Part shown: positions 20,776-63,073 of the stretch, in pieces
Layout: each line of letters opens with the position of its first letter
Numbering within the stretch: the stretch's first letter is position 1
Assembly: GCA_030602785.1 (NCBI GenBank)
Contig: JAUVZB010000001.1
Span: forward strand, 63,843 to 127,842
Length of the DNA: 64,000 nucleotides
Source of the DNA: Dehalococcoidia bacterium
Lineage (GTDB): Bacteria; Chloroflexota; Dehalococcoidia; GIF9; AB-539-J10
Direction: 5' to 3'
The notes under the pieces: model-generated
Told to the model about the DNA's origin: nothing
Databases searched by the model: none
Seen by the model: the letters and a program-made list of their open reading frames with translations, nothing else
Program-made: the position numbers and the translations under genes

Positions 20776-20900
20776 TTGGTCGCGATTTTAGCAGAAGGCC
20801 GTAGCTACGTCAATCGTTGCGGACTCTGGATTCGTTCGTGGGCAGCCGCGCCGGCGTGGCGTGCTACCATAGGCCCGTCCCCTCGTGCGGGTTCAAGCTG

Positions 20901-21323
20901 ATGAGCAGGCAACCGTTTGAGATGGTCGCCCACACCGCGGACATCGGTGTCCGTATTCACGGCGGCGACATGGAGGAACTGCTTGTCAACGCGGCGCATG
21001 CCCTGTATTCCATCCTGTTACGCGCCACCAACCTGACGGAGCGAGTTGAGCGTGTCGTCACGGTAGACTCGCCCGATGAGGAGGCTCTGCTGGTCGACTG
21101 GCTCAACGAACTCATCTACCTGTTCGACGCCGAGCGGCTTGCCTTCTCGAGATTTCAAGTTGAGCAACTCACTGAGTGCCGTCTTCAGGCACGCTGCTTC
21201 GGTGAGCGCATTGGCAGCGCCCGGCACGAGGTGCTGCGTGAAGTCAAAGCCGCGACGTATCACATGGCACACATTCACCACGCGGCTGACGGTTACACGG
21301 CTCAAGTGATACTGGACGTATAG
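20901..21323 (+). CDS. archease (RtcB activator)
   Basis: 140 aa from the ATG at 20901: MSRQPFEMVAHTADIGVRIHG..., typical of the archease family. Immediately upstream of rtcB. Confidence 0.8.
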   Translation: MSRQPFEMVAHTADIGVRIHGGDMEELLVNAAHALYSILLRATNLTERVERVVTVDSPDEEALLVDWLNELIYLFDAERLAFSRFQVEQLTECRLQARCFGERIGSARHEVLREVKAATYHMAHIHHAADGYTAQVILDV

Positions 21324-21332
21324 GGGCGCACT

Positions 21333-28589: not shown

Positions 28590-30257
28590 TCAATCGGCGA
28601 AGACTGCGCCGCTACTGGCAGAGGTCACCTTCTCAGCATATCGTTTGAGGTAACCTGAGGTCACGCGTGGCTCGAAGGGCGGCAGTTCCGCCAGCCTTCT
28701 GCCGATTTCGTCATCGCTCAACGCCACGTCCAGCTTATGAGCGGGGATATCGATTCGCATAGTGTCGCCATCGCGCAGGACGGCGATGGGCCCCCTCGCG
28801 GCAGCCTCGGGAGATACGTGCCCGATGGCTGCACCGCGCGTCGCTCCAGAGAAACGGCCGTCGGTGATGAGTGCGACTGCCTTGTCCATGCCCATTCCTG
28901 AGAGCAGCGACGTGGGGGTCAGCATCTCACGCATTCCCGGACCACCCCTTGGGCCTTCATTGCGAATGACAATCACGTCTCCCGACTTGAAAGCGCCCTG
29001 CATGATTGCCTCGGTTGCCAATTCCTCTGAATCAAATACGCGGGCAGGGCCCTCATGCAGCATCATCTCAGAGGAAACAGCTGCGCTCTTCACAACCGCA
29101 CCTTCCGGCGCAACATTGCCAAACAGCATGGAAAGGCCACCCGTGGCCTCATATGGGGCTGAAACGCTACGAATGACATCTCTATCCTTCACAGAGAAAT
29201 CTCTGACGAGTTTTCCTACGCTCTTTCCGGACACGGTAGATGCATCCGCGTTGAGGTGACTCGATATCTCGTTCATGACGGCGTGGATACCACCCGCTGT
29301 GTTGAGGTCCTCCAAGTGATGATGCCCCGCGGGACTCATCCTGCACAGATGAGGCACACTCTGGCTGATCTCGTTCAACCATGAAAGAGGATAGTGAACT
29401 CCGGCTTCGTGAGCGATTGCCGTCAGATGCAGCACTGAATTCGTGCTGCCGCCAAGCGCCACGTCAACGGCGAAAGCATTGTAGATAGACTGCTCATTGA
29501 TGATATCCCGGGGCTTCAGGTCCTGTTCCAGAACCTTCATTATCTGCTCGCCTGTCCTGAACGCAAGATCCAGCCGCTGGCCGTAAGTCCCGGGAATTGT
29601 GCCATTGCCCGCTAATGCCATTCCCAGCGCCTCAGTCATGCAGTTCATCGTGTTTGCGGTGAACATGCCTGAACAGCTTCCACACCCCGGGCACGCGACT
29701 CTTGCCATCTCCTCAAGCTGCTCCTCAGACATGTCTCCCCTGACCGTCCTGCCAACGGCCTCGAAAAGGTTGCTGAGGTCAATCGTGCGGCACTCGTTGT
29801 CCACCATCACGTGTCCTGCCATCATGGGCCCGCCCGACACGAAGATGGACGGGATGTTCATTCTGGCGGCAGCCATGAGCATGCCCGGCACTATCTTGTC
29901 GCAGCTGCAGATGAATACGAGTGCATCAAAGGCGTGCGCCTGTGCAACGACCTCTGCGGAATCCGCTATCAGCTCCCTACTCGGCAAGCTGTACTTCATT
30001 CCAGGATGATTCATGGCGATGCCATCGCAGACCCCTATGGTATTTGCTTCGAAGGGCACGCCACCTCCGGAGCGAATGCCCTGCTGCACAGCTTTGGATA
30101 CCGAATCCAGGTGCATATGCCCGGGTATGATGTGGTTGTAGCTGTTGATGACACCTATGAAAGGTCTATCCCAGTCTCCCTCCGTGCATCCCAGGGCATA
30201 CAAGAGAGACCTGTGTGGAGCTCGCTCCGGTCCACGTTTCACGACATCGCTTCTCAA
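28590..30257 (-). CDS. ilvD: dihydroxy-acid dehydratase
   Basis: 555 aa. [12 protein letters not shown] and the Fe-S Cys motifs. TTG start with GAGGAGG 7 nt upstream. Confidence 0.9.
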
Positions 30258-32632: not shown

Positions 32633-32684
32633 GAACTCGGCCTGTCCGTTGAAGCGCGGCAACCCAAAGCTGGATGCGAAGAAA

Positions 32685-32711
32685 GGCTGGGCTCCCGCGA
32701 GGGAGCCCAGC
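32685..32711. terminator. bidirectional intrinsic terminator between convergent panB and dctM
   Basis: GGCTGGGCTCCC-GCGA-GGGAGCCCAGCC forms an 11-12-bp perfect stem, flanked by AAAG and TTCTTT. Confidence 0.7.
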
Positions 32712-32741
32712 TTCTTTGTCACGTGTGCGACGGATCAAACG

Positions 32742-34073
32742 TTACATCAGACTCGGCAGCCAGAGGATAATCTGGGGGAAGGCAATACAGAGAGCCATCG
32801 CACCGAGAATAATGAACACGTAGGGAAACATACCGCGGATAATGTGCCCCGTGGTAATACCAAGGGCGGGATCCGCAGCCCCTCTCACATAGAAGAGCGC
32901 GTACGCAAAAGGTGGCGTCATGAAGGACATCTGCAGGTTGACGCAAATCATCATTGCGAACCACAAAGGATCAAATCCTGCCTCTGCAGCGATTGGCGTC
33001 ACGATGGGTACCATGATGAAGATAATGCCCAACCAGTCGATGAAGAAACCCAGGACGAAGCAGATGAACATGATGACGGCGAAGACACCCCACTTGCCCC
33101 CCACTGCATCGAGCACGAAGGCGCTCACAACCTTGTCGCAATTTGCCCGCATGAACACGCCCACAAACGCGAATGCCAGCGCGCCGATAAGCAGGACCAT
33201 GCCTGCCACCCGCACTGTGGTCATGGCGGTCCTTGCGAGAACCGCCCGGTTGAGCCTGCCATAGGCCAGGGCAAGCAAGATGGTAGCCATGGCCCCGACA
33301 CCTGCCGCCTCGGTCGGAGAAGCTATGCCGAAGAAGATGCTTCCCAGCACCGCAAGGATGAGCACTACCGGCGGCAGCATGGACTTGAGCAGCTTTCCTG
33401 CCTTCACGCCAAACGGAACCTGCCGGTCCGCCAGAGGCACGGGCGGCGCCAGTTGGGGCCGAACCAGGCACAGGACAATGACGTAGATGCAGTACATGGC
33501 GGACAGAAGGAAACCCGGCAGGAAAGCTGCGAAAAAGAGCTTCCCGACAGACAGTCCGGCCATGGGGCCGTACACCACGAGCATGATGCTCGGAGGTATG
33601 AGAATACCCAGGGAACCACCTCCACACACAGCGCCTGCTGCAAGAGACCTGTCGTAGCCCCTGTTGATCATCGCGGGGAGCGCTATGAGCGCCAGCATGG
33701 TGACCGACGCGCCGATGATTCCGACACATGCGGCCACAACCGTGCCGATAAGGATGGTAGTCACCGCAAGCCCACCCCGCAAGCCACCGAGCCACAGGTA
33801 GAGCGCGTCATACATCCCTTCAGCCACCCCCGAGTGCTCCAGCATCGTCCCCATGAAGACAAACAGTGGCACGGCGAGCAGGATGTAGTTGTTCATCGTA
33901 CTGAAGAACCGCCCGTAATAGAGCTCGGACGAGATGTTCGGGCCAAACAGGAGCAGGGACATGACGATTCCCACACCACCGATTGACAGCGCAAGCGGAT
34001 AGCCGAGGAGCACCCCCACAAGGATGCCACCCAGCATCAGAATGGCGACCAGTCCGGGACTCAGATCAATCAT
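32742..34073 (-). CDS. dctM: TRAP transporter large permease (copy 1)
   Basis: 443 aa, about 12 TM helices, with DctM-family motifs. Confidence 0.85.
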   Translation of the reverse strand: MIDLSPGLVAILMLGGILVGVLLGYPLALSIGGVGIVMSLLLFGPNISSELYYGRFFSTMNNYILLAVPLFVFMGTMLEHSGVAEGMYDALYLWLGGLRGGLAVTTILIGTVVAACVGIIGASVTMLALIALPAMINRGYDRSLAAGAVCGGGSLGILIPPSIMLVVYGPMAGLSVGKLFFAAFLPGFLLSAMYCIYVIVLCLVRPQLAPPVPLADRQVPFGVKAGKLLKSMLPPVVLILAVLGSIFFGIASPTEAAGVGAMATILLALAYGRLNRAVLARTAMTTVRVAGMVLLIGALAFAFVGVFMRANCDKVVSAFVLDAVGGKWGVFAVIMFICFVLGFFIDWLGIIFIMVPIVTPIAAEAGFDPLWFAMMICVNLQMSFMTPPFAYALFYVRGAADPALGITTGHIIRGMFPYVFIILGAMALCIAFPQIILWLPSLM

Positions 34074-34575
34074 AGGGCTTGCTCCTTATGGCGAAGTGCA
34101 GGTCGCGAACCAGGGTCGCCACGCCCTGCAGGAAGAAAAAGAGCAACCCGATGAAGACGAGAGTCCTGATCGGGCCAAGAATCGGGTACCAGAACGTTAT
34201 GTTGGACTTCTCATTGGTTTCCCACGAGTAAATGACCCAGTTCCAGGCCGCATAGGTCAAGAAGCCCATGCCGGGAAGAAAGAAAACGAACCAGAGGATA
34301 CTATCCATGATGGCCTGCATGCGCCGTGGAAACCGGGCGTAGAACACGTCCACGCGGACATGCCCTTTGTGCAGGTGCACGTAGCCAAACGCAAACGCGT
34401 ACAACGCGGCGCCGGTAAACGTGATGATACAGGGAAGCTGGATCGTGGGGCTGTTGAATACGTACCTCATCATCACCTCGATACAGACGACGGCGATGAG
34501 GGCAAAAACCAGCCACTTCAACTGCTCCCCGACCCACTCATTGACGGAGTCGACTAACTTGATTGCTTTTCTCAT
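34066..34575 (-). CDS. dctQ: TRAP transporter small permease (copy 1)
   Basis: 169 aa with 4 TM helices. Overlaps the dctM start by 8 nt. Confidence 0.8.
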   Translation of the reverse strand: MRKAIKLVDSVNEWVGEQLKWLVFALIAVVCIEVMMRYVFNSPTIQLPCIITFTGAALYAFAFGYVHLHKGHVRVDVFYARFPRRMQAIMDSILWFVFFLPGMGFLTYAAWNWVIYSWETNEKSNITFWYPILGPIRTLVFIGLLFFFLQGVATLVRDLHFAIRSKPYD

Positions 34576-34670
34576 TCAATCAGATCCCTTCCAATGTTAG
34601 GCCCCCTTCCGAGCGTAGGCCCGGAAGGGGGGCACATTCCGTATCAGGGGTACTCCCGGCGCACCGGTCG

Positions 34671-35798
34671 TCAGCCCCCGTACAGGGACTTCCAAGTTTC
34701 CCAGAAGGCCGTGTGCGAGGCCAGCATCTCGGCCATGGCGGGATCCTCGGCGGCAAGCTCATCCATGTACTCGGCCGCTATCTCCAGGAACGCCTCGTCG
34801 ATTGAAGCGGGTAGCAACTCGACGGTGACTCCGAAGTCCTTGAAGTCCTGGATGGCCTTCTCATTGGCCATGTGCAGGCGGGTGTGGTAGCTGACGGCCT
34901 CAGCGCGGCCGCAGTCCTCCACGATAACCTTCAAGTCATCGGGGAGCTCATTCCACTGGTCGGTGTTGATGAGCAACTGGTAGACCTCGGTCGGAGCGCG
35001 TGTCGGCGAGAGGTAGTAGTACTTGCCGACTTCCTGCAGGCCCATGCTCCAGTCGAACGCCGGGTTCGAGCACTCGTACGCGTCGATAAGGCCGCGATGC
35101 ATCGCCTCGAAGACCTCACCCAGAGGCATATATACGGCGCCCACACCCATCCGGTTGAGCACCACGCCACCATCGCCGGACGCACGCATCTTGAGTCCCT
35201 CTAGGTCCTCCGGACCCTTCAATTCCTTATCGCAGTGAATCCAGCCTTCAGGCAGGCCATGACAGCCCGCGCCCGCGATGTCAATGAAGTTGAACCCATA
35301 TTCAGGATACCACTTGTTGGCCAGGTCGGCGCCAACGGCGCGATGCCAGATCAGGTGAGGGATCGGCGGCATGCCGCCAACCCTCTGTGACATCATGCTC
35401 CCGAACCTGATATCACCGACCATGTACGACCCCCCTCCGGCACAGAAGTCAAGCACGCCGCTGCTTACCGCCTTGTATTCCTCGGTGGCAGGACACACCG
35501 CGCCGGCCGGTTTCGCATCCCAGACCAACCGTCCCTGGCTGGCCTCGCTAATCCTCTCGCTGAGTATCACCAGGCTTTCGTGAACCGGCATGCCTGAAGG
35601 AAGTGCAGCCTGGCCGACCCAGTTGATAACCTCCGCCGCGGGAGCCGCAGGGGCCTCTTCTTCCTCCGCAGGGGCTGCTTCCTCCTCTTCAGCGGCTGGA
35701 GCAGCCGCTTCCTCGGCAGCACAGCCAATGGCGCCAATACCGAGCACCATCACCAGCGCTGTCAGTACCAACAGTAGACGCTTGGACATCTTTCTCAC
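34671..35798 (-). CDS. dctP: TRAP transporter DctP-family substrate-binding lipoprotein (copy 1)
   Basis: Lipobox LGIGAIGC followed by a long AEEAAAPAAEEEEAAPAEEEE linker, then a DctP-type fold. Confidence 0.85.
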   Translation of the reverse strand: MRKMSKRLLLVLTALVMVLGIGAIGCAAEEAAAPAAEEEEAAPAEEEEAPAAPAAEVINWVGQAALPSGMPVHESLVILSERISEASQGRLVWDAKPAGAVCPATEEYKAVSSGVLDFCAGGGSYMVGDIRFGSMMSQRVGGMPPIPHLIWHRAVGADLANKWYPEYGFNFIDIAGAGCHGLPEGWIHCDKELKGPEDLEGLKMRASGDGGVVLNRMGVGAVYMPLGEVFEAMHRGLIDAYECSNPAFDWSMGLQEVGKYYYLSPTRAPTEVYQLLINTDQWNELPDDLKVIVEDCGRAEAVSYHTRLHMANEKAIQDFKDFGVTVELLPASIDEAFLEIAAEYMDELAAEDPAMAEMLASHTAFWETWKSLYGG

Positions 35799-35918
35799 CT
35801 CCTGTAAGAATATCTATGCCAACGGCGAATACCGCTTGCAGCAGCAATTCGCCGAATGATGCCCTCTCGCCGACAGCTAACTGATTCAGGCGCACCTGGC
35901 AAACAAAAAGACTCCTCC

Positions 35919-35949
35919 AGTATAGGAAGGCACGTTTGCAGATGTCAAT
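35919..35949 (-). promoter_or_regulatory. sigma70-like promoter for TRAP operon 1: -35 TTGACA (35949-35944), 19-bp spacer, -10 TATACT (35924-35919)
   Basis: Read on the reverse complement. The same architecture recurs upstream of TRAP operon 2. Confidence 0.45.
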
Positions 35950-36070
35950 AGCTGGCGGGAAGATTCTCACAGCTAAGTGCGCGTGTTCGTATGCGAATAT
36001 CTGGCATCGAAATCCAGAACAGCAGTCCAAGCGGGTCCGCCGCAGAAGTCCCTGTAGCCGGACGGCTCTT

Positions 36071-36157
36071 TGTCAGCCCGCCCGCGCGAGGCAAACGCTA
36101 TCTCGAATCCGCTGCCGCCGACACCGCCGACTGTCAGCCGGCCCACGCGAGGCAGAC
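36071..36157. repeat. 26-bp imperfect direct repeat pair (TGTCAGCCCGCCCGCGCGAGGCAAAC and TGTCAGCCGGCCCACGCGAGGCAGAC, 23/26 identical) at 36071-36096 and 36132-36157, 61 bp start-to-start
   Basis: Read directly from the sequence. Lies between the TRAP2 terminator and the TRAP1 promoter. Confidence 0.75.
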
Positions 36158-36163
36158 ACAAGA

Positions 36164-36193
36164 ACGGGGGCAACCTGCTGCGGTTGCCCCCGT
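36164..36193 (-). terminator. intrinsic terminator after dctM copy 2
   Basis: ACGGGGGCAACC-TGCTGC-GGTTGCCCCCGT forms a 12-bp perfect stem, followed on the minus strand by TCTTGTGTCTG. Confidence 0.65.
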
Positions 36194-36219
36194 TGGGAAC
36201 TCTTGGAAGTGTGAATTTA

Positions 36220-37554
36220 CTAGACCATCTGATTGGGCAGCCAGGTGATGATCTGCGGAAACGCGATGCAAAGGGCCAGCCCTATCACAATCATGGTGAT
36301 GAATGGAATGACCCCCTTCATGATGTGATGCGTCTCGATACCAAGTTCGGGAGGAGCTGCCGCCTTCACAAAGAAAATCGCGTAGGCGAACGGAGGAGTG
36401 AGGAACGACATCTGCAGGTTAATACAGATCATCATTCCGAACCACAGCGGATCGAATCCCGCGGCCACCGCAATCGGTGTGATGATGGGCACCATTATGA
36501 ACACGATACCGATCCAATCGATGAACATGCCCAGGATGAAGCAGAGGAACATCACCAGTGCAAATGAACCCCACATACCACCCGGCGCCGCCAGGAGGAA
36601 TTCCTCAATAACCGCGCCACAGTGGGCCCGGATGAACACACCTACAAACGCGGACGCCAGCGAGGCAATCAGCAGAATCATGCCGCTCAGCTTGATGGTC
36701 TCGAACGCGGTGTCCATCAGCGCGCGGATTGTGAGCTTGCGGTAGGCGACCGCGAGAAGGACAGAAGCCAGCGCACCGACGCCTGCGGCCTCAGTGGGGG
36801 CGGCAATGCCGAAGAAGATGCTCCCAAGGACCGCAAGGATGATGGCCAGTGGGGGAACGAGTGACTTCAGCAACATCGCCGTCTTCTTGCCCAGCGGAAC
36901 ATTGCGCTCCTCGATACTGACAGGCGGGCCAGCGTTGGGCCGGATGATGCAGTACACGATGACAAAGGCACAGTAGAGCCCCGCCAGCACGAACCCCGGA
37001 ATGAAGGCCCCGAAGAACAGCTTGCCGACGCTCAGGTTTGCCATCGGTCCGTACACGACAAGCATGATGCTTGGGGGAATGAGGATGCCGAGCGTGCCTC
37101 CGGCACACACGACACCTGTCGCGAGGGACTTGTCATAGCCCCTCTTGATCATAGCCGGCAGACCGATGAGCGCCAGCATTGTTGTCGATGCAGCGATGAC
37201 GCCGACACAGGCCGCCATCAGCGTTCCGATGAGCACGGTGGTAATAGCCAGCCCGCCTCGCAATCCTCCGAACCAGAGGTACAGGGCGTCATACAACCCC
37301 TCGGCCACTCCCGACTTCTCCATCATTGTGCCCATGAATACGAAGAAGGGGACCGCCAGGAGAATGTAGTTGGTCAGCTGATTGAAGACCCGGTTGTAGT
37401 AGAGCTCAGAGACTATCTTGCCTCCAAACAGCAGGAAGCCGACAATTACCCCAACTGCACCAACGGAAACCGCGAGCGGATAGCCGAGAAGCACGCCGAC
37501 CAACACGCCACCAAGAAGGAGAATCGTTACAAGTTCCGGGCTCATGTCAATCAA
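36220..37554 (-). CDS. dctM: TRAP transporter large permease (copy 2)
   Basis: Paralog of 32742-34073. Start set at TTG 37554 (MIDMSPELV, compared with MIDLSPGLV in copy 1), which reproduces the 8-nt overlap with dctQ. Confidence 0.85.
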   Translation of the reverse strand: MIDMSPELVTILLLGGVLVGVLLGYPLAVSVGAVGVIVGFLLFGGKIVSELYYNRVFNQLTNYILLAVPFFVFMGTMMEKSGVAEGLYDALYLWFGGLRGGLAITTVLIGTLMAACVGVIAASTTMLALIGLPAMIKRGYDKSLATGVVCAGGTLGILIPPSIMLVVYGPMANLSVGKLFFGAFIPGFVLAGLYCAFVIVYCIIRPNAGPPVSIEERNVPLGKKTAMLLKSLVPPLAIILAVLGSIFFGIAAPTEAAGVGALASVLLAVAYRKLTIRALMDTAFETIKLSGMILLIASLASAFVGVFIRAHCGAVIEEFLLAAPGGMWGSFALVMFLCFILGMFIDWIGIVFIMVPIITPIAVAAGFDPLWFGMMICINLQMSFLTPPFAYAIFFVKAAAPPELGIETHHIMKGVIPFITMIVIGLALCIAFPQIITWLPNQMV

Positions 37555-38056
37555 AGCGCTCACCTCTTGCCAAGAAGTACAGGTCGCGCCAGAGTTGCGC
37601 AACACCCTGCAACAGAAGCAGCAGGATGCCGATGAATATCGCCGTCCTCATCGGCGCGAGGGGAGGATACCAGTACGTGATGACCGACTTCTCGCCGATG
37701 GCCCACGCGTGAACCATCCAGGAACCTGAGCTGTACGTGAGCACACCTATCACAGGTAAGAACAGCGCGAAGAAGCAAGCCACGTCGACGATTGCCCTAC
37801 CCCTCTCCGAAAACCGATTGTAGAGGACGTCCACGCGAACGTGACCCTTGCGCAACAGCACAAAGCCCCATGAGAGCGTGTACATCGCTGCCGCGAAGTG
37901 TATGGGCACCTCGAAGCCCCACATAGTAGGATGGTTGAACAAGTACCTCTGACCCACCTCGATACAGGTGAAAGAAATGGCGATCAAGAGGAACCAGCGC
38001 ATGCTGCGGCCCATCCATCCGTTCACGGAATCGACCAAGTGCACGAGTTTTTTCAC
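37547..38056 (-). CDS. dctQ: TRAP transporter small permease (copy 2)
   Basis: 169-aa paralog of 34066-34575. Confidence 0.8.
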   Translation of the reverse strand: MKKLVHLVDSVNGWMGRSMRWFLLIAISFTCIEVGQRYLFNHPTMWGFEVPIHFAAAMYTLSWGFVLLRKGHVRVDVLYNRFSERGRAIVDVACFFALFLPVIGVLTYSSGSWMVHAWAIGEKSVITYWYPPLAPMRTAIFIGILLLLLQGVAQLWRDLYFLARGERFD

Positions 38057-38148
38057 ATTAAGACACCTTACAGCCTCACTCCGGGCTTCCCAGCCCGGAG
38101 TGAGGCTCCATGAAGCACTAGTACCAGGTCAAAAACACAGCCGGGACA

Positions 38149-39267
38149 CTAGGGCTTGGCCCAGGTGCCTTGGATCTGCTCCTGGAAGCCGAAGTAGGAT
38201 GCCAGAATCTCGGCAGCGAACGGGTCATCGGCTGCCTTGTTCGCATAGAACTCCGCAGCAGCGACGCCGTACTCCTCCACTAAGGCATCCGGCAATCTGC
38301 GGACGTCCGTGCCGTAGTCACGGAAGTGATCGAGCGCTTCGAGGTCCAGTCTGAGGAGCTCGGAATACGCCCTGATGGTCTCCGCCTGGTTCACCTCGGA
38401 TACAATCACCTTGAGGTCGTCGGGAAGCTCGGCCCATCGGGCCGCGTTCACGATGAAGGGATTGTACTCATAGGGTTGTCGAGCTCCGGACAGCCACAGG
38501 TAGTCGCCAACTTCGTTGAGACCGAGGTCCCAGTTCAGCGTCGGGCTGGCGCACTCGAAGGCATCGATGACGCCACGGTGCATGGACTCGAAAATCTCGC
38601 CTGCGGGCATCATGACCGGGCCGGCACCGAGCATGCCAAGAATCTCCGCGCCGTCACCGGCGCCTCGAATCTTCAGACCCTTGAGGTCACCCGCCTTCTT
38701 CAGTTCCTTGTTGGTCTGCAGGAATATCTCAGGGGGGCCCATCCAACCACCATCGCGGACGATATGGACATCGTAGCCTGCAATCATCTCATCGGCGAAC
38801 TCAGCGCCGCCACCCTCGCGGAACCAGATCAACGCCTCCATCGGGGACATGCCGCCCGACACCATGGTCATCATTCCGGCCGTGGGGAACTTGTCCATCC
38901 AGTACATGTAGCAGGTCACGGCAAAGTCCAGCACGCCGGAGTCGACCGCGTCGAACTCCTTGGATGCAGGCGCAATACCACCACCGACCTCAACCACCAT
39001 CTTCAGGCGACCGCCGCTCGCAGCCTCAATCTGCTCCCCCACCCTCTTCAGTGAAGCATGCTGCTGCGTGATGCCGCCGGCATGGGACTGTCCCACCCAC
39101 TCAAAGACTTCCTCCGTGGGGGCAGCCGGGGCAGCCTCTTCCTCCTCCTCCTCAGGTGCTGGCGCTTCCTCTTCAGGAGCGGGCTCCGCTTCTGGAGCAC
39201 AGCCAACAATCAGCAAGCTGACTATCGCGAGCGCGCCAATCAGGGTCCAGACAGATTTCTTGCTCAC
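38149..39267 (-). CDS. dctP: TRAP transporter DctP-family substrate-binding lipoprotein (copy 2)
   Basis: Lipobox LLIVGC plus an APEAEPAPEEEAPAPEEEEEE linker, then a DctP fold. Confidence 0.85.
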   Translation of the reverse strand: MSKKSVWTLIGALAIVSLLIVGCAPEAEPAPEEEAPAPEEEEEEAAPAAPTEEVFEWVGQSHAGGITQQHASLKRVGEQIEAASGGRLKMVVEVGGGIAPASKEFDAVDSGVLDFAVTCYMYWMDKFPTAGMMTMVSGGMSPMEALIWFREGGGAEFADEMIAGYDVHIVRDGGWMGPPEIFLQTNKELKKAGDLKGLKIRGAGDGAEILGMLGAGPVMMPAGEIFESMHRGVIDAFECASPTLNWDLGLNEVGDYLWLSGARQPYEYNPFIVNAARWAELPDDLKVIVSEVNQAETIRAYSELLRLDLEALDHFRDYGTDVRRLPDALVEEYGVAAAEFYANKAADDPFAAEILASYFGFQEQIQGTWAKP

Positions 39268-39296
39268 CTTTCACCTCCTATTATGATTCGAAACAT

Positions 39297-39318
39297 ACGT
39301 GTGCTGGTCGAACACACG
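39297..39318. promoter_or_regulatory. inverted repeat ACGTGTGctggtcgaaCACACG in the TRAP-2 leader (candidate operator or leader hairpin)
   Basis: 6-7-bp perfect arms with a 9-nt spacer, between the predicted promoter and the dctP-2 start. The TRAP-1 leader has an analogous GGCGAAT...ATTCGCC repeat. Confidence 0.3.
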
Positions 39319-39367
39319 GGACAATTCCAAGAGGTCCGTCCCACAAATGCGACCTCCCCCGCAGGAG

Positions 39368-39397
39368 AGTATACGAATCGTCCAACGCGAAAGTCAA
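39368..39397 (-). promoter_or_regulatory. sigma70-like promoter for TRAP operon 2: -35 TTGACT, 18-bp spacer, -10 TATACT
   Basis: Read on the reverse complement. Parallels the TRAP-1 promoter. Confidence 0.4.
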
Positions 39398-39600
39398 TAC
39401 TGCGTATGAACGGCCTCATCGCTTTCCAAGACCGCCTGGACCACGAACGTCCCCGCCGACTGCTGAACTATCTCCCTCTGCCAGCCGAGGAGATTTCTTC
39501 CCCGTAGCGTTTCAGTCATGCCTGCTTCACTCATGGGTCGAACGGCAGTAACACCGCGAGTGGCGCTTTCACAGGCTCCTCACCAGTGAATCCGCATGCA

Positions 39601-40863
39601 CTACCCGTCCAGCAGTGGCAGGACAAGTGGTCCATCGGGGATGACGGCGATCTCGGCATCATCGCCCAATCGCCGCAGGGCCATGGCAACCGCCTCATCC
39701 ATGTCATGGACCGGCTCAAGCTGCATGCTGCGAACCAGTTCGTCATCAAGCTCCGAAAGCAGCATCACCTGGTTCCGAAGCTGGATGCGAGCCAGTACCT
39801 GGTTCTGCCACTGGACACCGATGGGCTCCTCTCTGCGTATTCTCTGCAGGACATCAATCGGGCCTGTGCATGACTGGTGCAATTCCAGGAACGACTCCGG
39901 ACCGGCGCCGCTGGAGCAGGAAGAAGCCGCGATAACGATGCCGCCGTCTCGCGTCACGAGGGACGCAGTGTCCATGCCCTTGACCGTCTGGTACAGATCA
40001 AGATCGAGAGGCGCGCCGCTATTCGTCGTGATGGCGATGTCTACCCTGTGTTTGACCTTTGCACCTACGACGCCGCGCGCGGCTTCGCAGCCTGCCTCGT
40101 GTGCCGTAACCATGTCCCCTGCGAATACGTTGGTGATTTCCTTCTTGTCATTGAGGAGAACAGTGACGACGAAATCGAGGCCTGCCATCCTGGCCTGCTC
40201 AACCATGTCCTCATGAATGGGGTTTCCCTGCAATACACCCGCACGTGCACGGGGGTGCTCAATCATGCGGTAGCCGTGGTTCACATAGGCCGACTTCAGG
40301 CCGAATACGCCCGGAGCGATGCTCTTGCGGCCGCCGGAGAACCCTGCGAAGAAGTGAGGTTCTATGAACCCCGTGGACAGCCGGAAATCAGCCTCTACCA
40401 CTAGCGGGTTGATGTCTACCGGCGCGCCACGGGAAGTTACGCCGATGTTCACCACTTTCGAGGGGTCATGGTTGACAACCCGGTACTGTGTCACGATGTC
40501 ATCGCCGAGGAGGCGACGCAGTTCTTCCTCTCCGAGAGGGGGATGAAGGCCGAGCGCCACGATGATGGTGATCTGCTCTTTCGGAACAACGCGCTCCAGT
40601 TCCTGCAGAATCGGTGGCAGCAGCCGGTCGTCGGGGCAGGCGCGGGTGTTGTCCGTCACTATGACGACCACGTTGTCCTGCGGCTGCACCGCATCGGCAA
40701 GAGGCTTCTGGCCGAGGGGGTTGCGCAGAGCATCACGCACTGCGCCGGCCTCGTCGTCGATGCCGGCCACGTGATGGGGCTCGAGCACAAACGCAACATT
40801 GCGCTCGGGTACCCTCACCCTCACGGTCGATGAGCCGTACGGCAGCTCAAACTCGACATGCAT
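39601..40863 (-). CDS. larA: LarA-family nickel-pincer-cofactor (NPN)-dependent 2-hydroxyacid racemase/epimerase homolog
   Basis: 420 aa with a DUF2088-type N-terminus. EPHFFAGFSGGRKSIAPG contains the conserved Lys that tethers NPN in lactate racemase. Substrate unknown. Confidence 0.75.
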   Translation of the reverse strand: MHVEFELPYGSSTVRVRVPERNVAFVLEPHHVAGIDDEAGAVRDALRNPLGQKPLADAVQPQDNVVVIVTDNTRACPDDRLLPPILQELERVVPKEQITIIVALGLHPPLGEEELRRLLGDDIVTQYRVVNHDPSKVVNIGVTSRGAPVDINPLVVEADFRLSTGFIEPHFFAGFSGGRKSIAPGVFGLKSAYVNHGYRMIEHPRARAGVLQGNPIHEDMVEQARMAGLDFVVTVLLNDKKEITNVFAGDMVTAHEAGCEAARGVVGAKVKHRVDIAITTNSGAPLDLDLYQTVKGMDTASLVTRDGGIVIAASSCSSGAGPESFLELHQSCTGPIDVLQRIRREEPIGVQWQNQVLARIQLRNQVMLLSELDDELVRSMQLEPVHDMDEAVAMALRRLGDDAEIAVIPDGPLVLPLLDG

Positions 40864-40869
40864 AGAACG

Positions 40870-42240
40870 TCACCTGATTGCCGAGCCGGGATTCAGTATG
40901 TTGTTGGGGTCAAACACCTTCTTGATGCCCCTCATGAGTTCCTCGGACTTGGGGTCCATCATGAGGTCCAGATACTGCAGGCGAATCTTGCCGACACCGT
41001 GCTCTCCCGTAATGACGCCGCCCAGCGCAATAGCTGCCTCGTAGATCTCCTTCTTCACGGCCTCCGCTGTCCCACGCTCGATGAGTTCTTTCAGCATGTA
41101 CGGGTGGAAATTGCCATCCCCCGCATGTGCGATAGTCATGATCTTGGTGTCGTACTTGTCCGCAATCGCGTCGAGCGCGTCCAGCATCCTTCCCAGGCTG
41201 GCCGGTGGCACGGTGACGTCCGAGTCGCCCGCGATTCGAGGTTTCATGGCGGAGTAGATCTCACTGCGGATCTTGAGAATCTCGGCCTGCTCTTCGCGTC
41301 TCTCAGCAATGACCACGTCGATGGCGCCGTGCTCCTGGCACACGTCGGATATCTTCTCGCACTGGAAGTAGATATCGTCTTCGTTAGAGCCGGAGAGAAC
41401 CAGGAGCAGGTGTGAGGAGCCCTTCTCAGCCAGCCACTTCATGCCGAGATTCTCGGCAGAGAGAAGAATGACGTCATGGTCGACGTACTCAATGGCCATC
41501 GGAATGACGCCGCTCTGCAATATCTTGGGCACCGTATTGATGGCGGCGTGCCTGTCGTCATAGGAGACCACGAGAGTCGCCGTCCCCGCGAACTTGGGAT
41601 AGAGGCGCATCACGGCTTTCGTGATGATTCCTAGTATGCCTTCGCTATCGATGAGGAGGTGCATGAGGTCGAGACCCGTGTTGTTCTTCAGCAGCTTGCC
41701 ACCCATCGTCACTATCTCACCCGTCGGCATGACGACTTCGAGCCCCTTCACGTAATTGCGGACGACGCCGTACTTGACCGCCCGGGTTCCGCCGGCGTTG
41801 CACGCAATCATCCCGCCTACCTGTGCGCCCTCGTCACCCGGGTGCGGCGGAAACAGCAGATTGGCATCTTCCACAGCGGCGAGCAGGTCGCCCAGCGTCA
41901 CTCCGGCCTGCGCTGTGACCATCAGGTTCTCCTTGTCTACCTCCTCGACCTTGTCGAAGCGCTCCATGGAGAGGACTATGCCGTCCTGCGTCGGCATTGC
42001 GCCGCAGCAAAGGCCCGTGCCCGCACCACGTGGGTAGACCGGTGTCTTGTCGCGGTTCGCCAGCTTGAGGATTTCCGATATCTCCTGGGCCGTGCCTGGC
42101 TTCACTACCACAACGTGCTCGGCCGGGGTAAGCCGCTGATACGGTGTCGTCTCGTCGTACAGGTAGGTCTCCATCTGCTCGCGTTCGGTGACAACCCAGT
42201 CAGCACCAACTATTGCCCTCAGTCCTTCAACGTCAGTCAT
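40870..42240 (-). CDS. FAD-linked oxidase, GlcD/D-lactate dehydrogenase family (paralog 1)
   Basis: 456 aa. FAD-binding PCMH domain (VVVKPGTAQEISEILKLA...PRGAGTG) and C-terminal ...GEHGVGKIR.... Confidence 0.85.
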   Translation of the reverse strand: MTDVEGLRAIVGADWVVTEREQMETYLYDETTPYQRLTPAEHVVVVKPGTAQEISEILKLANRDKTPVYPRGAGTGLCCGAMPTQDGIVLSMERFDKVEEVDKENLMVTAQAGVTLGDLLAAVEDANLLFPPHPGDEGAQVGGMIACNAGGTRAVKYGVVRNYVKGLEVVMPTGEIVTMGGKLLKNNTGLDLMHLLIDSEGILGIITKAVMRLYPKFAGTATLVVSYDDRHAAINTVPKILQSGVIPMAIEYVDHDVILLSAENLGMKWLAEKGSSHLLLVLSGSNEDDIYFQCEKISDVCQEHGAIDVVIAERREEQAEILKIRSEIYSAMKPRIAGDSDVTVPPASLGRMLDALDAIADKYDTKIMTIAHAGDGNFHPYMLKELIERGTAEAVKKEIYEAAIALGGVITGEHGVGKIRLQYLDLMMDPKSEELMRGIKKVFDPNNILNPGSAIR

Positions 42241-43701: not shown

Positions 43702-44859
43702 TCAGATAGTCGGCCCAACTGTGTAGATGTTACAGTTGACGCCCGACCCGTCGTAGTCAAGTATCTCTGCCTTCACTTCTTCACCCGAGAACACCTGCAG
43801 AACGCTCTCATACACGCGCCTCCCTGCGTCCTCCACGGTCTCACTGCCTGTGATTATGCCGCTCACATCGATGTCGATGTATTCGGCAAGGCGCGTGCAG
43901 GTGAGTTCATTTCCAGATATCTTGATCACGGGGCTGAGTGGGAAACCCTGTGGGGCGCCGATTCCAGTTGAGAACAACATCACCTGGCAGCCCACTGAAG
44001 CCAGTCCTGTCAGGAATTCCATCTCGCGACCCGGCGAGTCCATGAAGTATAGACCCTGTCCACCGGGCCGCTCTCCGTATTTTACGACACCGTCTATGGG
44101 CAGTGTCCCCGACTTTACTATCGCTCCCAGAGACTTCTCTTCGATAGTGGTCAGCCCGCCTCTGATATTTCCTTCGGTAGGCTGTCCACCGCGCATGTCT
44201 ACACCCATTGCGTTGACACGATGCTCCATAGCTGTCACACATCCCAGCAATTTGTCGGCCACCTCAGGGCTTGACGCCCTCTTGACGAGGATGTGCTCTG
44301 CGCCAATGACCTCCGTGGTCTCCCCGAAGACAACCATCGCGCCGGCACGAACAAGCATATCAACCGCGGCGCCGGCTGCGGTATTGGAGGCCAGGCCGGA
44401 GGTGGTGTCAGAGGCGCCGCACTTGACGCCGACAATGAGGTCCGACAGCGATATTTCACACCGCTCAGCCTGCACCGTTTTCGCGAGCCGCCTTGCAGCC
44501 TCAATCCCGCTTTCTACAGCTACGGTGATGCCACCCATTGCCTGAACGCGGATAAGCTCCACAGGCTTGTCCTGCCGCTCGACGGCCACAATCTCGTCCG
44601 CGTTGACCGACTCGCAACCGAGGCTGACCAGCACAACTGCCGCGACGTTCGGATTGCGGCACAATCCGATGAGAACGTCCGTCACTATCCTCACATCCGT
44701 CGGCAACTGGCAGCATCCCTGATGGTGCAGCATCGGCCGTGCACCGTCTACCGCAGCCCCTATCCTGCGAGCCACCTCATTCACGCAGCCCACGGTGGGC
44801 ACAATCGCGACGTAGTTCCTGGCCCCCGCAGGGCCCTTCTGTCTGCTGTATCCTTGCAT
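43702..44859 (-). CDS. UxaA-family (altronate/galactarate dehydratase C-terminal domain) dehydratase with no N-terminal SAF domain
   Basis: 385 aa, with multiple conserved Cys/Gly blocks of the GD_AH_C type (GCCQLP, SLGCE, KCGASDTTSG). Confidence 0.65.
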   Translation of the reverse strand: MQGYSRQKGPAGARNYVAIVPTVGCVNEVARRIGAAVDGARPMLHHQGCCQLPTDVRIVTDVLIGLCRNPNVAAVVLVSLGCESVNADEIVAVERQDKPVELIRVQAMGGITVAVESGIEAARRLAKTVQAERCEISLSDLIVGVKCGASDTTSGLASNTAAGAAVDMLVRAGAMVVFGETTEVIGAEHILVKRASSPEVADKLLGCVTAMEHRVNAMGVDMRGGQPTEGNIRGGLTTIEEKSLGAIVKSGTLPIDGVVKYGERPGGQGLYFMDSPGREMEFLTGLASVGCQVMLFSTGIGAPQGFPLSPVIKISGNELTCTRLAEYIDIDVSGIITGSETVEDAGRRVYESVLQVFSGEEVKAEILDYDGSGVNCNIYTVGPTI

Positions 44860-44902: not shown

Positions 44903-46258
44903 CTATGGCAGTGCAGTGCCCGGATTCAGGATGTCGTTCGGGTCGAACAGCTTCCTGATGCCCTGCATGAGCTCGAGCGATTTGTCGTCAAGGCAGAGCG
45001 GGAGTTCTGCTTTCCTGATCTTGCCCACGCCGTGCTCCGCCGTGATAGTTCCACCCATTCTGGCCGCCTCTACGTATATGTCGTGTTTCACGTCATTGAG
45101 CACGCCTCGCTCATAGAGTTCCAATGGAATGTGCGGATGTATGTTTCCGTCACCTGCATGGCCGTAGGTGATGATGCGTGTCTGGTACTTCTGAGAAATG
45201 TCATCCAGTACGTCGAGGAAATTCGCGATTTCGGCCGGAGGTACGGCCATATCCAGGACGTCGGCCACCTGCGGCTTCAGCGCCGGATAGAGCTCGCTTC
45301 GAATCTTGAGGATGTTCGCCTGCTCCTCTCGCGTGTCGGCCATAAGGGTGTCTACCGCGTTGAGCCCCTCGCATACCTTGATTACGGTAGCCGCCTGAGA
45401 ATAGACATCGTCCTCATTGCTGCCGGTCACGATGACAATCAGATGCGCCATACCCTTCTCCGCAGGCCAACGCTTTCCGAGATGGTCCGCCGAAATCTGA
45501 ATCACATCGCGCTCAACATACTCCAGCGCGAGCGGGATGACACCCGTCTGCAGTATTTTCGGGACGGCCTTGATGGCGGAATGCCTGTCGTCGAACGACA
45601 CTATCAGGGTGGCCGACGCCGCGAAACACGGGTAGAGCCTGAAGATGACCTTCGTTACGATGCCAAGTATGCCCTCGCTGTCAATCATCAGATGCATCAG
45701 GTCGAGCCCGGTATTGTTTTTGAGGAGCTTGCCCCCCATTGTCACTATCTCACCCGTCGGCATGACGACTTCGAGCCCTTTCACGTAGTTGCGCACCACG
45801 CCGTACTTCACCGCGCGCGTGCCGCCGGCGTTGCAGACGACCAGTCCGCCGAGTTGCGCACCCTCATCGCCAGGATGGGGAGGAAAGAGCAGGTCAGCCT
45901 CCTCGACTTCCTTCAACATCTTCTCGAGCGTCGCGCCTGCTTCGGCCACCACCATGAGGTTCTCCTTGTCGACCTCGATAATCCTGTCGAGTCGTTCCAT
46001 CGAGAGAACGATGCCGGGAATAGTAGGCACCGCACCACCGACACAGCCTGTGCCCCCCCTGGGAAACACCGGGATTCGGTGCTCGTTCGCTAGTCTCAGT
46101 ACGCTGGAAATCTCTCAGGGGTTGGCCGGTTTCACAACCACGACATCGGAAGCGGGTTTCGGCCGAACCGGAAGGGCGGTCACATCCGTCAGGTAGCTCT
46201 CCATGAGCGCCAGGTCGGTCAGCACCCAATCCTCGCCGACGATTTCCTTCAGGTTCAT
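44903..46258 (-). pseudogene. GlcD-like FAD oxidase paralog 3, interrupted by an in-frame TGA at 46117..46115
   Basis: My translation from the ATG at 46258: MNLKEIVGEDWVLTDLALMESYLTDVTALPVRPKPASDVVVVKPANP*EISSVLRLANEHRIPVFPRGGTGC... The TGA sits exactly where paralogs 1 and 2 have Gln (KPANAQEIS). The downstream 388-aa frame (ORF track 44903-46069) is intact and conserved. Confidence 0.6.
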
Positions 46259-46847
46259 TACCAGTTCGTTCTGCATCTTGCCTCCCGATTGTAGTTTACA
46301 CGCGGCGCAACGCTATTCCGCGGCGCGGACTGATTGCAGGATGGTGCCGGGGGCCTGTGATGTGTGGGGCACTCTCGGGGAGCGCACCTGACCGAGAGGG
46401 CGCGTGTAGCAACTGCGATTGGCTGCTCACCCAGCAGAGCCAGGCCGCTGACCGGCGACGCGGGGCCGCAAATCGCTCGACGCCTACGCAGTGGCCTGCT
46501 GGGTGTCGGTTTCCAGTATCTCACTCCATCATTGCCCGATACGTGGCGAACCTGCATAACGCGGCAACCCCCCAAGGCCAACCTTTCGTCGGGAGCAACG
46601 ACCACCGTGTCCCTGAAGCATCAGTAACGCTGTCGCGGCAAGGCGCCCTGAGCCGGACGACCTCTTGCGAAACTGAGTCAAATCATGCCAAACCGGCAGC
46701 ACGGCAGGCAACAAAGCCGAACAATTGTACACGTTGCCGGGCGCACACGGTAGTCTCCTGTGAGACAGCCGGTGACCCGCCAGGATTGCCCTCAGATGTT
46801 CTTGACGCTTCGAAAGGGGCGATGCTAAGCTAGCCGCAACCTTCGAT

Positions 46848-48527
46848 TTGCGACAATTTATGGATACTGACGCCAGGACCCACCGTGTTTCTACCAGCGA
46901 TGATGTCGAGGTATCCACATATCTTGGCATCGCCCAGGCATTGCAGGGTGAAGAGCCAATCCCCCAGGATACGACTCCCCTGAGTGGGCGCGAAGCAATC
47001 GTCATACTCGACTTCGGATCGCAGTACAGCATGCTGATAGCACGCCGTATCCGCGAGTGCCACGTATACTGCGAAGTGTTGCCACACGACACGCCGTGGG
47101 AAAAGATCGAGCCTTTGAACCCCCGTGGATTCATTCTATCCGGTGGTCCCGCCAGCGTGTACTCGCAGGACGCGCCGCTGCCGCCAACCTATGTCTATGA
47201 AAAGCATCTTCCGGTTCTCGGCATCTGCTACGGGATGCAGGCCATTGCACATCAGCTCGGCGGGCAGGTCTCTCCCGGAGAGAACCACGAGTACGGGCAT
47301 GCCGTGCTCCATCTCGATGCGGGGGACTCGCCACTGTTCTCAGGACTTCCACCGTCGGGCCCGGTGTGGATGAGTCACGGTGATGTTGTGAGCGAACTGC
47401 CTCCCGGCTTCCGGGCACTCGCATATACGGAGAATTCGCCGCTCGCCGTTATCGGAAACACCGACGACATCTACGGACTGCAGTTCCATCCCGAGGTGAC
47501 ACACACACCACAGGGACGGCAAATCATCGAGAACTTCGCGTACAAAGTGTGCGGCTGCAGCGGCAATTGGACGCCTGCCCGGTTCATCAATGAGAGCGTC
47601 GACCGTATCCGCGAACAGGTGAAGGACGGCAAGGTCGTCTGCGCCCTGTCAGGTGGTGTCGACTCGGCTGTCACCGCAATGCTCATCCACCGGGCGATAG
47701 GCGACAATCTCACCTGTATCTTCATCAACAACGGACTGCTGCGCAGAGAAGAACCCGAGCGGGTTCTCAATACCTTCCACAACAATCTGAATGTCCGGGT
47801 GATTTTTGTCGACGCCACCGACCGATTCCTGCGCGGGCTAAGCGGGGTTGTCGACCCGGAGCAGAAGCGTCGCATCATCGGTGAGGAGTTCATTCACGTA
47901 TTCGAGGAGGAGGCCGACAAACTCGGCGCAGTGGACTTCCTTGCACAGGGCACGGTGTATCCGGACGTTATCGAGAGCAGCAGTTCCCCTGAACACGAGG
48001 CTTCAGCCCGAATCAAGAGCCACCACAACGTGGGTGGATTGCCGGCCCTGATGAAGCTGAACCTCGTTGAGCCGCTGAGATACCTCTTCAAGGATGAAGT
48101 TCGCGAGGTCGGTCTGGGTCTCGGGTTGCCCGAAGAAATGGTGTGGCGTCAACCCTTCCCCGGGCCTGGTCTGTCTATTCGTGTGATAGGCGAGGTGACG
48201 AAAGAACGTCTCGATATTCTCCGTTCGGCAGACTGGATCGTCATGAACGAGGTGAAGAATGCCAATCTCTATGGACAGCTGTGGCAGAGTTTTGCTGTCC
48301 TGACGGATGTCAGAAGCGTGGGAGTCATGGGCGACTTCAGAACTTACGGATACCTCATCGCGGTGCGTGCTGTGAACAGCACGGACGCGATGACTGCTGA
48401 TTGGGCGCGTTTGCCCTACGAGTTGCTCGACAGGATCTCGCACCGCATCGTCAACGAAGTTCCACACGTGAACAGGGTCGTCTACGACATCACCAGCAAA
48501 CCCCCCTCAACCATCGAATGGGAGTGA
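46848..48527 (+). CDS. guaA: GMP synthase (glutamine-hydrolysing)
   Basis: GATase domain ([28 protein letters not shown]), ATP-PPase SGGVDS motif and a C-terminal dimerisation domain. The true start may be downstream of 46848. Confidence 0.9.
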
Positions 48528-49899: not shown

Positions 49900-50361
49900 A
49901 TGGAGCCGATGATAGGAATCGTCATAGGAAGCGTGAACGACAAGGAACTCGTGGCCCCCGCCTTGCAGGTGCTCGAAGATTTCGGGGTGAAGCACGAGGT
50001 CTCCGTTATCTCAGCGCACCGCACTGCCGAGAAGGCACGCTCATACGCCCAGGCGGCCGAGGAGCGTGGCGTTGAAGTGCTGATAGCCGCCGCGGGCTAC
50101 GCGGCGCATCTTCCGGGTGTGCTTGCGAGCTGGAGCGCGCTGCCGGTTATCGGAGTTCCGCTGCCCACCAGCGAACTAAAGGGAATCGATTCCCTCCTCT
50201 CCATTGTGCAGATGCCGGGCGGTGTGCCTGTCGCCTGCACAGGCATAGGAAAGAGCGGCGCTAAGAACGCCGCGCTGATGGCCATCCAGATACTCGCGGT
50301 GCGCGATGAGCGCCTGCGGGCCGCGTATCGCACCTACAGAGACAACTTGGCTGCGCAGTGA
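49900..50361 (+). CDS. purE: N5-carboxyaminoimidazole ribonucleotide mutase
   Basis: 153 aa, IGIVIGSVNDKELV...AAGYAAHLPGVLA. Confidence 0.9.
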   Translation: MEPMIGIVIGSVNDKELVAPALQVLEDFGVKHEVSVISAHRTAEKARSYAQAAEERGVEVLIAAAGYAAHLPGVLASWSALPVIGVPLPTSELKGIDSLLSIVQMPGGVPVACTGIGKSGAKNAALMAIQILAVRDERLRAAYRTYRDNLAAQ

Positions 50362-61965: not shown

Positions 61966-62283
61966 ATGTTGTTGCTAGCAGACTGGGATATCACAGGCCC
62001 CACAGCCCTGCTGGTCGGGTTGACCGTGGCCTTCCTCGTTGTGTCTGTGGTGGCGGTGGTTCGCAGCCAGAGGCGCAGGCCGATGGCGGGAACGGATGAT
62101 ATTCTTGGCCTTGTCGGAACGGTTCGTACTCGCCTCAAGCCGGAGGGCAGCGTGCAAGTACGCGGTGAACTGTGGGAGGCGGTCGCGAAGGGCCGGGACC
62201 TGGAACCGGGCACAAAGGTTGTCGTCACGAAAATCGAGGGATTGAGACTGACAGTGAGGATAAAGGAGGAAACGGATGATTGA
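61966..62283 (+). CDS. NfeD short form (TM helix plus OB-fold domain)
   Basis: 105 aa from the ATG at 61966: MLLLADWDITGPTALLVGLTVAFLVVS..., with a C-terminal GELWEAVAKGRDLEPGTKVVVTKIEGLRLTV OB-fold like the C-terminus of the upstream gene. Confidence 0.7.
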   Translation: MLLLADWDITGPTALLVGLTVAFLVVSVVAVVRSQRRRPMAGTDDILGLVGTVRTRLKPEGSVQVRGELWEAVAKGRDLEPGTKVVVTKIEGLRLTVRIKEETDD

Positions 62284-63049: not shown

Positions 63050-63073
63050 TCCCTCCACGTGAAATAGCGCGAA

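Follow-up and report, generated by a model that had tools for sequence, protein, structure and literature searches.

What does the larA homologue encoded in this 64-kb stretch of Dehalococcoidia DNA (the window, in what follows) do, and from where would its product obtain the nickel-pincer nucleotide (NPN) on which enzymes of this kind depend? We conclude that the gene probably encodes a working LAR-group LarA racemase, set in an operon for the uptake and oxidation of hydroxy acids and supplied with cofactor by larB, larE and larC genes that lie elsewhere in the genome. The evidence for each part of this answer, and the weight of the alternatives, are considered in turn.

Identity and active site of LarA

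How closely does the predicted protein resemble the racemases of known structure? The ORF opens with ATG. Its product matches Pfam Lar_N (DUF2088) over residues 9–209 (2.6e-61) and LarA_C over residues 272–412 (2.1e-36); the two-domain Lar_N plus LarA_C architecture of the LarA superfamily is present and spans residues 9–412. The top NCBIfam model is NF033504, ‘nickel-dependent lactate racemase’ (1.2e-137). At 459.2 bits the score is 0.8 bit short of the curated equivalog cutoff of 460, while the LarAH10 model reaches 318.6 bits against a cutoff of 540. The best match among solved structures is the LarA apoprotein of T. thermosaccharolyticum (2yjg, 6.9e-87), followed by L. plantarum LarA (5huq, 6.6e-82), a broad-spectrum LarA (9eid, 1.4e-78) and Mar2 (6d6z, 2.1e-69). 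The first two share both domains with the present protein and align with it over the full length at 37–38.5% identity, with E values in the range 1e-82 to 1e-87. Judged by its sequence the ORF encodes a full-length LarA, and the similarity is far beyond chance. It is a further member of a known family and, as such, an ordinary find.

Does this LarA retain the residues that hold the cofactor and perform the chemistry? The block GFSGGRKS, residues 174–181, is identical in the T. thermosaccharolyticum and L. plantarum enzymes and occupies residues 178–185 of the latter. In the alignment with 5huq, K180 falls on K184, the lysine that tethers the NPN, and H196 falls on the nickel-coordinating H200. 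The catalytic histidines H108 and H174 of L. plantarum LarA correspond to H107 and H170; D72 and R75 correspond to D71 and R74, S180 to S176, and Y294, Q295 and K298 to Y291, Q292 and K295. We take D72, S180, Y294, Q295 and K298 to be the residues that bind the carboxylate and hydroxyl groups of the substrate in the LarA structures. R75 has been named as NPN-binding (PMC11770544). The likeness to both solved LarAs extends over the NPN, nickel, catalytic and carboxylate-binding residues and over F/F/W, the first three positions of the specificity signature considered below. Unlike L. plantarum LarA, which has T359, the present enzyme has Q353 at the corresponding position.

These residues are also kept among relatives. 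In L. plantarum numbering, D72, R75, H108, H174, F176, S180, K184, H200, Y294, Q295, K298 and W358 are invariant in 120 of the 120 best homologues, which span 62–100% identity to the present LarA. Measured against four relatives, the dN/dS of the gene is 0.05–0.18. At the level of the sequence, such strong purifying selection argues for a working enzyme. With all the cofactor-binding and catalytic residues kept and dN/dS low, it is plausible that LarA works as an NPN enzyme.

The preliminary description of this DNA had placed the NPN-tethering lysine within GFSGGRKS and had singled out His108, Lys184 and His200 for comparison with L. plantarum LarA. Both points are borne out: the lysine is K180, conserved throughout the 120 homologues, and the three equivalents are H107, K180 and H196. 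Its view that the protein could plausibly function as an NPN enzyme is likewise strengthened, with H107, K180, H196, H170, R74, Y291, Q292 and K295 all in place in the predicted protein. It had also allowed that the enzyme might use a different mechanism. Of this there is no hint, given full conservation of the cofactor and catalytic residues and a dN/dS in the range stated.

The 120 best homologues come from metagenomes and, where they are named, are called ‘nickel-dependent lactate racemase’ of Dehalococcoidia or Chloroflexi metagenome-assembled genomes (MAGs); the same name is used by NCBI for proteins at 63–91% identity to this LarA. Two Logan contigs of run SRR14872671 encode identical proteins: LarA is found on one of 11 kb, and the UxaA-like protein of the operon on one of 4 kb. 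LarA homologues are found in 8 of the 19 Chloroflexota genomes of the COG database (PMC11770544, Table S1). Nothing relevant emerged from a literature search on LarA or the nickel-pincer cofactor in Dehalococcoidia or Chloroflexi.

The operon and its relatives

In what company is larA found? It closes the series of enzyme genes in a minus-strand operon (table 1), in which the order is GlcD, UxaA, GlcD, GlcD, LarA, followed by two TRAP systems. The larA start follows the stop codon of the adjacent oxidase gene after 6 nt. The spacer between larA and dctP contains a sigma-70-like site, TTGACT-18-TATACT, at 39397–39368, and dctP is immediately preceded by an AGGAGG ribosome-binding site. With Rfam models only two tRNAs were detected in the window, and the surroundings of the operon showed no riboswitch.

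Table 1. Genes and other features of the larA operon, listed in the direction of transcription, with positions in the window.
Feature	Position	Strand	Basis or details
GlcD-like paralogue 3	44903..46276	-	full-length alignment to intact 458-aa orthologue; in-frame TGA at codon 54
UxaA/GarD-family dehydratase ‘large subunit’, 385 aa	43702..44859	-	GD_AH_second + GD_AH_C
GlcD/LctD-like FAD-linked oxidase 2, 456 aa	42304..43674	-	66% identical to larA-adjacent paralogue
GlcD/LctD-like FAD-linked oxidase, 456 aa, putative D-lactate/D-2-hydroxyacid dehydrogenase	40870..42240	-	Pfam FAD_binding_4 + FAD-oxidase_C
LarA-family NPN-dependent lactate-type racemase (predicted), 420 aa	39601..40863	-	Pfam, NCBIfam and PDB matches
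larA–dctP spacer, 333 bp	39268..39600	-	sigma-70-like site + AGGAGG
TRAP solute-binding protein DctP-1, 372 aa	38149..39267	-	Pfam DctP
DctQ-1	37547–38056	-	TRAP permease subunit
DctM-1	36220 to ~37545	-	TRAP permease subunit
Second TRAP system	32742..35798	-	DctP-2 34671–35798, DctQ-2 34066–34575, DctM-2 32742–34073

What kind of dehydrogenases accompany the racemase? The three GlcD-like proteins are paralogues, 63–66% identical to each other. The best PDB match of the larA-adjacent oxidase is chain C of 7qh2, the LctD of the A. woodii Ldh/Etf complex (1.9e-86), with glycolate oxidase and mitochondrial D-lactate dehydrogenase next; against the glcD model the larA-adjacent protein scores 348.6 bits, under the cutoff of 567.9. 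The neighbours had been described beforehand as D-2-hydroxyacid dehydrogenases. They are in fact of the FAD-linked GlcD/LctD type (COG0277) and not of the NAD-dependent ‘D-isomer-specific 2-hydroxyacid dehydrogenase’ family. In paralogue 3 the in-frame TGA, at 46115–46117, stands where the other paralogues carry Gln. No record of the truncated 388-aa product was found; a Logan contig (L033) begins downstream of the stop.

The uptake systems point in a similar direction. The best PDB matches of DctP-1 are 4pet, 5cm6 and 2zzv, all at about 1e-30, and DctP-2 is likewise nearest to this group. The last, 2zzv, is the lactate-binding protein TTHA0766; the first two are pyruvate complexes. The gene context of lactate use is present in part: LctD-like dehydrogenases adjoin larA, and the TRAP binding proteins belong to the lactate/pyruvate group. 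The three dehydrogenase paralogues, taken with the UxaA-type dehydratase, suggest more than one substrate.

The architecture of the UxaA-like protein resembles a ‘large subunit’, as it is named by JGI. It has no SAF domain, and no gene for a SAF small subunit was seen in the operon. We considered whether it might be a SuyB-type sulfolactate lyase partnered by a sulfolactate-racemase LarA, and dropped the idea because the operon has no SAF small subunit. A sulfolactate racemase is opposed also by LarA itself, which does not have the basic residue with which malate racemases engage the second acidic group.

Is this arrangement peculiar to one genome? We compared 31 related loci from species-representative genomes, nearly all of them Dehalococcoidia or Dehalococcoidales MAGs. 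The source genome is outside the representative set, and the nearest loci encode LarAs at 91% identity (full length) and 95% identity (partial). The core order GlcD–UxaA–GlcD–GlcD–LarA is repeated in the nearest relatives, L004, L008, L009, L013 and L025, and also in L012, where larA was missed by the ORF caller; wherever such a locus reaches far enough, DctPQM–DctPQM comes next. Of the 31 loci, 15 have a GlcD-like gene and 10 a UxaA-like gene, the latter being missing from other relatives that keep GlcD–LarA. In L015 the order is TRAP–EtfB–EtfA–GlcD–LarA.

Several relatives have an ilvD gene at the position of the larA–dctP spacer. We considered this IlvD/EDD gene as a sugar-acid dehydratase and set it aside, the copy in the window scoring as biosynthetic IlvD (798.5 bits, cutoff 644) and standing beside panB. 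The presence of ilvD near larA in relatives is probably housekeeping synteny.

How does the operon compare with systems already described? Unlike the gene in the organisms of 5HUQ and 2YJG, this larA lies outside a larABCDE operon, with no LarD or nickel transporter nearby, and belongs instead to a catabolic operon. In L. plantarum the role of LarA is to supply D-lactate for the cell wall. A closer parallel is offered by the lct clusters of gut anaerobes, in which lctD encodes a D-iLDH, lctB and lctC the electron-transferring flavoprotein (ETF), lctE a permease and lctF a racemase, and which are induced as a unit on lactate; strains without the lactate racemase use D-lactate only (PMC8914356). 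As in the clusters of A. woodii and Anaerobutyricum soehngenii, the racemase gene shares an operon with a gene for an FAD-dependent, putatively D-specific dehydrogenase of the LctD type and with an uptake system. The operon differs from the lct clusters in that it has no EtfAB and no LutR-type regulator, has TRAP systems in place of the lactate permease, and includes, besides three paralogous dehydrogenases, a UxaA-type dehydratase that the lct clusters lack. Neither ETF genes nor a lactate permease (LctP) were found in the operon or in the window as a whole. With its EtfBA, L015 resembles the lct arrangement, a TRAP transporter replacing the permease.

The cofactor-maturation genes

If LarA requires the NPN, where are the genes that make it? 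Scans of about 55 ORFs in the 64-kb window with Pfam and NCBIfam profiles gave no larB, larC or larE, there being no family-level match to AIRC/LarB, DUF111/LarC or LarE. The window and 468 kb of related loci were also searched by six-frame tblastn. The queries were L. plantarum LarE (100% identical to 5udq), L. plantarum LarB as read from the 7mj0 alignment, and the N-domain of M. thermoacetica LarC from 12bi. They returned only the PP-loop of GMP synthase, with E values of at least 0.014, and one chance-level LarB match. The earlier statement that the window lacks these three genes thus holds by both methods. Two genes of the window have the folds named in the preliminary description for LarB and LarE, and were rejected as candidates. 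The PurE at 49900–50361 is not LarB, since it scores 175 bits with the purE model (cutoff 149.6) and 29.9 bits with the LarB model (cutoff 175). Nor is the GuaA at 46848–48527 LarE: it scores 798.6 bits as a GMP synthase and 31.2 bits with the LarE model (cutoff 150).

The same absence extends to the relatives, for larB, larC and larE are missing from within 10 kb of larA in all 31 related genomes. Might the genome then be without an NPN pathway, so that LarA is inactive, works by a different mechanism, or receives cofactor scavenged from the community? The absence from the window and from the vicinity of larA in the relatives would be expected on such a view. However, among the neighbours of 57 group-1 LarA genes, counted over three genes on each side, LarC appears in 42% and LarB in 33% (Desguin 2020, Table S1), so a larA without an adjoining maturation gene is common. 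Moreover, the invariance of the NPN-contacting residues in all 120 homologues and the low dN/dS are expected neither of a relic nor of a repurposed scaffold. A further point against it is that about 15% of surveyed genomes carry larB, larE and larC without any larA homologue (PMC11796402). We regard a genome without the pathway as very improbable.

Within that alternative, a particular version has the genome truly devoid of larB, larC and larE and its conserved LarA loaded with NPN taken from neighbouring microbes. The analogy behind it is with Dehalococcoides, for which corrinoid scavenging is known. We know of no precedent for scavenging of the NPN, and we regard this version as extremely improbable.

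LarA homologues occur together with homologues of the pathway enzymes in about 9% of the surveyed genomes (PMC11796402). In the present clade the NPN pathway, if present, is always unlinked to larA, as judged over 10 kb in the 31 related genomes. We infer, as a reasonable default, that larB, larE and larC are located elsewhere in the genome.

Substrate and proposed function

On what substrate might the enzyme act? In the LarA family four positions, the equivalents of F175, F176, W358 and T359 of L. plantarum LarA, go with specificity: F, F, W and E/Q are usual in lactate racemases; the last two are H/Q and K in malate racemases; E, V, A and H mark gluconate epimerases, and Y, F, H/Q and T hydroxyglutarate racemases (Urdiain-Arraiza et al. 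2024, PMC11770544). The present enzyme has F171, F172, W352 and Q353, the LAR signature, and on this ground falls in the LAR group. Its 120 best homologues agree, with F at the F175 position in 111, F at the F176 position and W at the W358 position in all 120, and at the T359 position Q in 82, E in 37 and D in one. The same group contains LarAH43 of Enterocloster asparagiformis and LarAH51 of Clostridium pasteurianum, both with F, F, W and E/Q, a likeness judged from the published signature.

The LAR signature does not, however, mean lactate alone. LAR enzymes also take glycerate and 2-hydroxybutyrate, and LarAH43, whose T359 position is occupied by Q as in the present enzyme, works about as well on glycerate as on lactate, with a slightly higher kcat/KM for glycerate (PMC11770544). 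A Q at this position therefore does not fix the substrate. Could LarA use the same NPN chemistry on a short 2-hydroxy acid other than lactate, such as glycerate or another 2,3-dihydroxy acid, supplying a stereoisomer to the UxaA-type dehydratase and to the FAD dehydrogenases? The Q shared with LarAH43 would suit such a role, as would the retention of a UxaA-family large subunit inside the operon in 10 of the 31 related loci; three dehydrogenase paralogues and two TRAP systems, for their part, suggest several substrates. But Q or E at the T359 position is equally the general LAR signature, and among solved structures the adjacent dehydrogenase and the binding proteins come nearest to proteins of lactate or pyruvate. 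Nothing links the UxaA-like protein of this operon to glycerate, and its gene is missing in other relatives with GlcD–LarA. Taken together these points make a glycerate-type substrate rather unlikely, though it is the likeliest of the alternatives.

What of malate or another dicarboxylic 2-hydroxy acid? The LarAH6 model, that of a malate racemase, is the second-best NCBIfam match at 409.5 bits, and in LarAH group 5, to which Mar1 belongs, a COG2721 gene (UxaA family) is always adjacent. The operon resembles that of Mar1 (Desulfitobacterium hafniense) in having a LarA homologue near a COG2721 gene and a tripartite uptake system. Yet 409.5 bits is below both the LarAH6 cutoff of 500 and the score of the same protein with the LarA model, and among solved structures Mar2 matches less well than the three LarAs. 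The specificity positions argue the same way: W followed by Q, E or D is found in this LarA and in all 120 of the best homologues, in contrast to the H/Q and K of the malate racemases. With the LarAH5 model the score is 341.3 bits against a cutoff of 462. By these scores and residues the present LarA is not a member of LarAH group 5, and a MAR-like activity is exceedingly unlikely.

The neighbouring dehydrogenases had been thought to point to a substrate other than lactate. The opposite is the case. A COG0277 FAD/FMN dehydrogenase adjoins 35% of group-1 LarA genes and is the commonest non-Lar neighbour, followed by ETF (32–33%) and L-lactate permease (25%) (Desguin 2020, Table S1). The lct clusters pair lctD with lctF, the paralogue next to larA is nearest to LctD, and the F, F, W, Q signature opposes the claim as well. 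Lactate is favoured, though not to the exclusion of other substrates; the most precise statement that the sequence allows is that the substrate would be lactate or a very short 2-hydroxy acid.

How, then, might the operon work? In the reading that we prefer, that of a LAR-group racemase serving hydroxy-acid oxidation, the TRAP systems would import a 2-hydroxy acid, either lactate or another very short one such as glycerate or 2-hydroxybutyrate. In LarA the NPN, made by larB, larE and larC sited elsewhere in the genome, would be tethered to K180, with its nickel coordinated by H196. H107 and H170 would take turns as acid and base, the cofactor storing a hydride in the meantime, and C2 would be inverted by this proton-coupled hydride transfer. 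We infer that the flux runs from the L-form to the D-form, which the D-specific FAD-dependent dehydrogenases would then oxidize to the 2-oxo acid, in the case of lactate pyruvate. A single stereospecific route of oxidation would in this way serve both enantiomers, as is the case for anaerobic lactate users with lct clusters. Against this reading count the absence of the NPN genes from the window, the near miss of the NCBIfam LarA cutoff, the modest identity to characterized LarAs, the promiscuity of LAR-group enzymes, the missing lactate permease and ETF genes, the UxaA-type dehydratase, the triplicated dehydrogenases and the premature stop in one of them.

The finding matters little beyond annotation: a nickel-pincer racemase of the LAR type is placed in a conserved hydroxy-acid operon. 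Some interest attaches to the UxaA-type dehydratase that lacks SAF, to the triplicated dehydrogenases and to the cofactor pathway of the genome. For the organisms themselves, the locus suggests that uncultured Dehalococcoidia of sediment or groundwater can exploit lactate, or similar short 2-hydroxy acids, in either enantiomeric form by way of D-specific flavoenzymes.

Interruption of the upstream-most GlcD-like gene

How should the internal stop in the upstream-most of the operon's three GlcD-like genes, which encode paralogous FAD-linked oxidases, be read? The TGA occupies codon 54, a position at which both other paralogues have Gln. Because of it, ORF tools return only a 388-aa product with a GTG start at 46069. 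The intact 458-aa orthologue from the larA-bearing locus L004 of a related genome aligns with the window gene over its full length in a single frame, at 77.5% identity. Three readings fit the TGA: the gene is a pseudogene, the codon is recoded, or the assembly is wrong at this point.

Two independent Logan contigs of run SRR14872671, L001 and L033, each end within a GlcD paralogue, of which 288 residues remain at the contig end. Short-read assemblies of the operon are therefore probably fragmented by the GlcD paralogues, which are 63–66% identical, or by strain variants.

Features discussed, with positions in the window
Feature	Position	Strand	Remarks
ORF	718-1962	+	coding-like GC3
ORF	2361-2843	+	coding-like GC3
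IlvD, biosynthetic	28590-30257	-	798.5 bits (cutoff 644)
Two complete TRAP systems	32742-39267	-	DctPQM twice in tandem after larA
UxaA/GarD-family 'large subunit'	43702-44859	-	GD_AH_second + GD_AH_C, without SAF domain
GlcD-like paralogue, upstream-most in operon	44903-46276	-	in-frame TGA at 46115-46117
GuaA	46848-48527	+	PP-loop
PurE	49900-50361	+	AIRC-fold
ORF	62225-63139	-	coding-like GC3

Genes downstream of larA and elsewhere in the window

In L004, L005, L009, L010 and L013, ilvD lies just downstream of larA, between it and dctP, whereas in the window it is found beyond panB and a DUF2520 reductase gene, which indicates local rearrangement. The larA–dctP spacer of the window measures 333 bp and carries a predicted sigma-70-like site (39397-39368). 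The closest relatives of both TRAP binding proteins belong to the lactate/pyruvate-binding subgroup. Naive longest-ORF calling picks wrong-strand ORFs here, 32649-33986 (+) over DctM-2 and 34024-34557 (+) over DctQ-2.

The only AIRC-fold and PP-loop proteins within the window are PurE and GuaA. We rejected them as LarB and LarE, respectively. Both are housekeeping purine enzymes of the pur cluster (purD-purE-purB-purC, with guaA adjoining). Three ORFs of 160–414 aa (table) gave no Pfam or NCBIfam matches, and tblastn ruled them out as LarB, LarC or LarE. An archease–RtcB RNA ligase pair (20817-22778, +), unrelated to larA, lies amid the translation genes thrS, infC, pheT and proS.

The UxaA/GarD-family large subunit

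The gene context of LarAH group 5, namely COG2721 and a tripartite transporter, resembles the SuyB/SlcHFG sulfolactate system. In the present operon no SAF small-subunit gene is visible as a partner of the UxaA-like large subunit, which sits between GlcD paralogues in 10 of the 31 related loci (L004, L008, L009, L012, L013 and L025 among them). In published work on LarAH group 5 (Mar1), the COG2721 gene always adjoins, a tripartite tricarboxylate transporter often does, and the KM for malate is very high. A sulfolactate-type role for the group may be worth testing.
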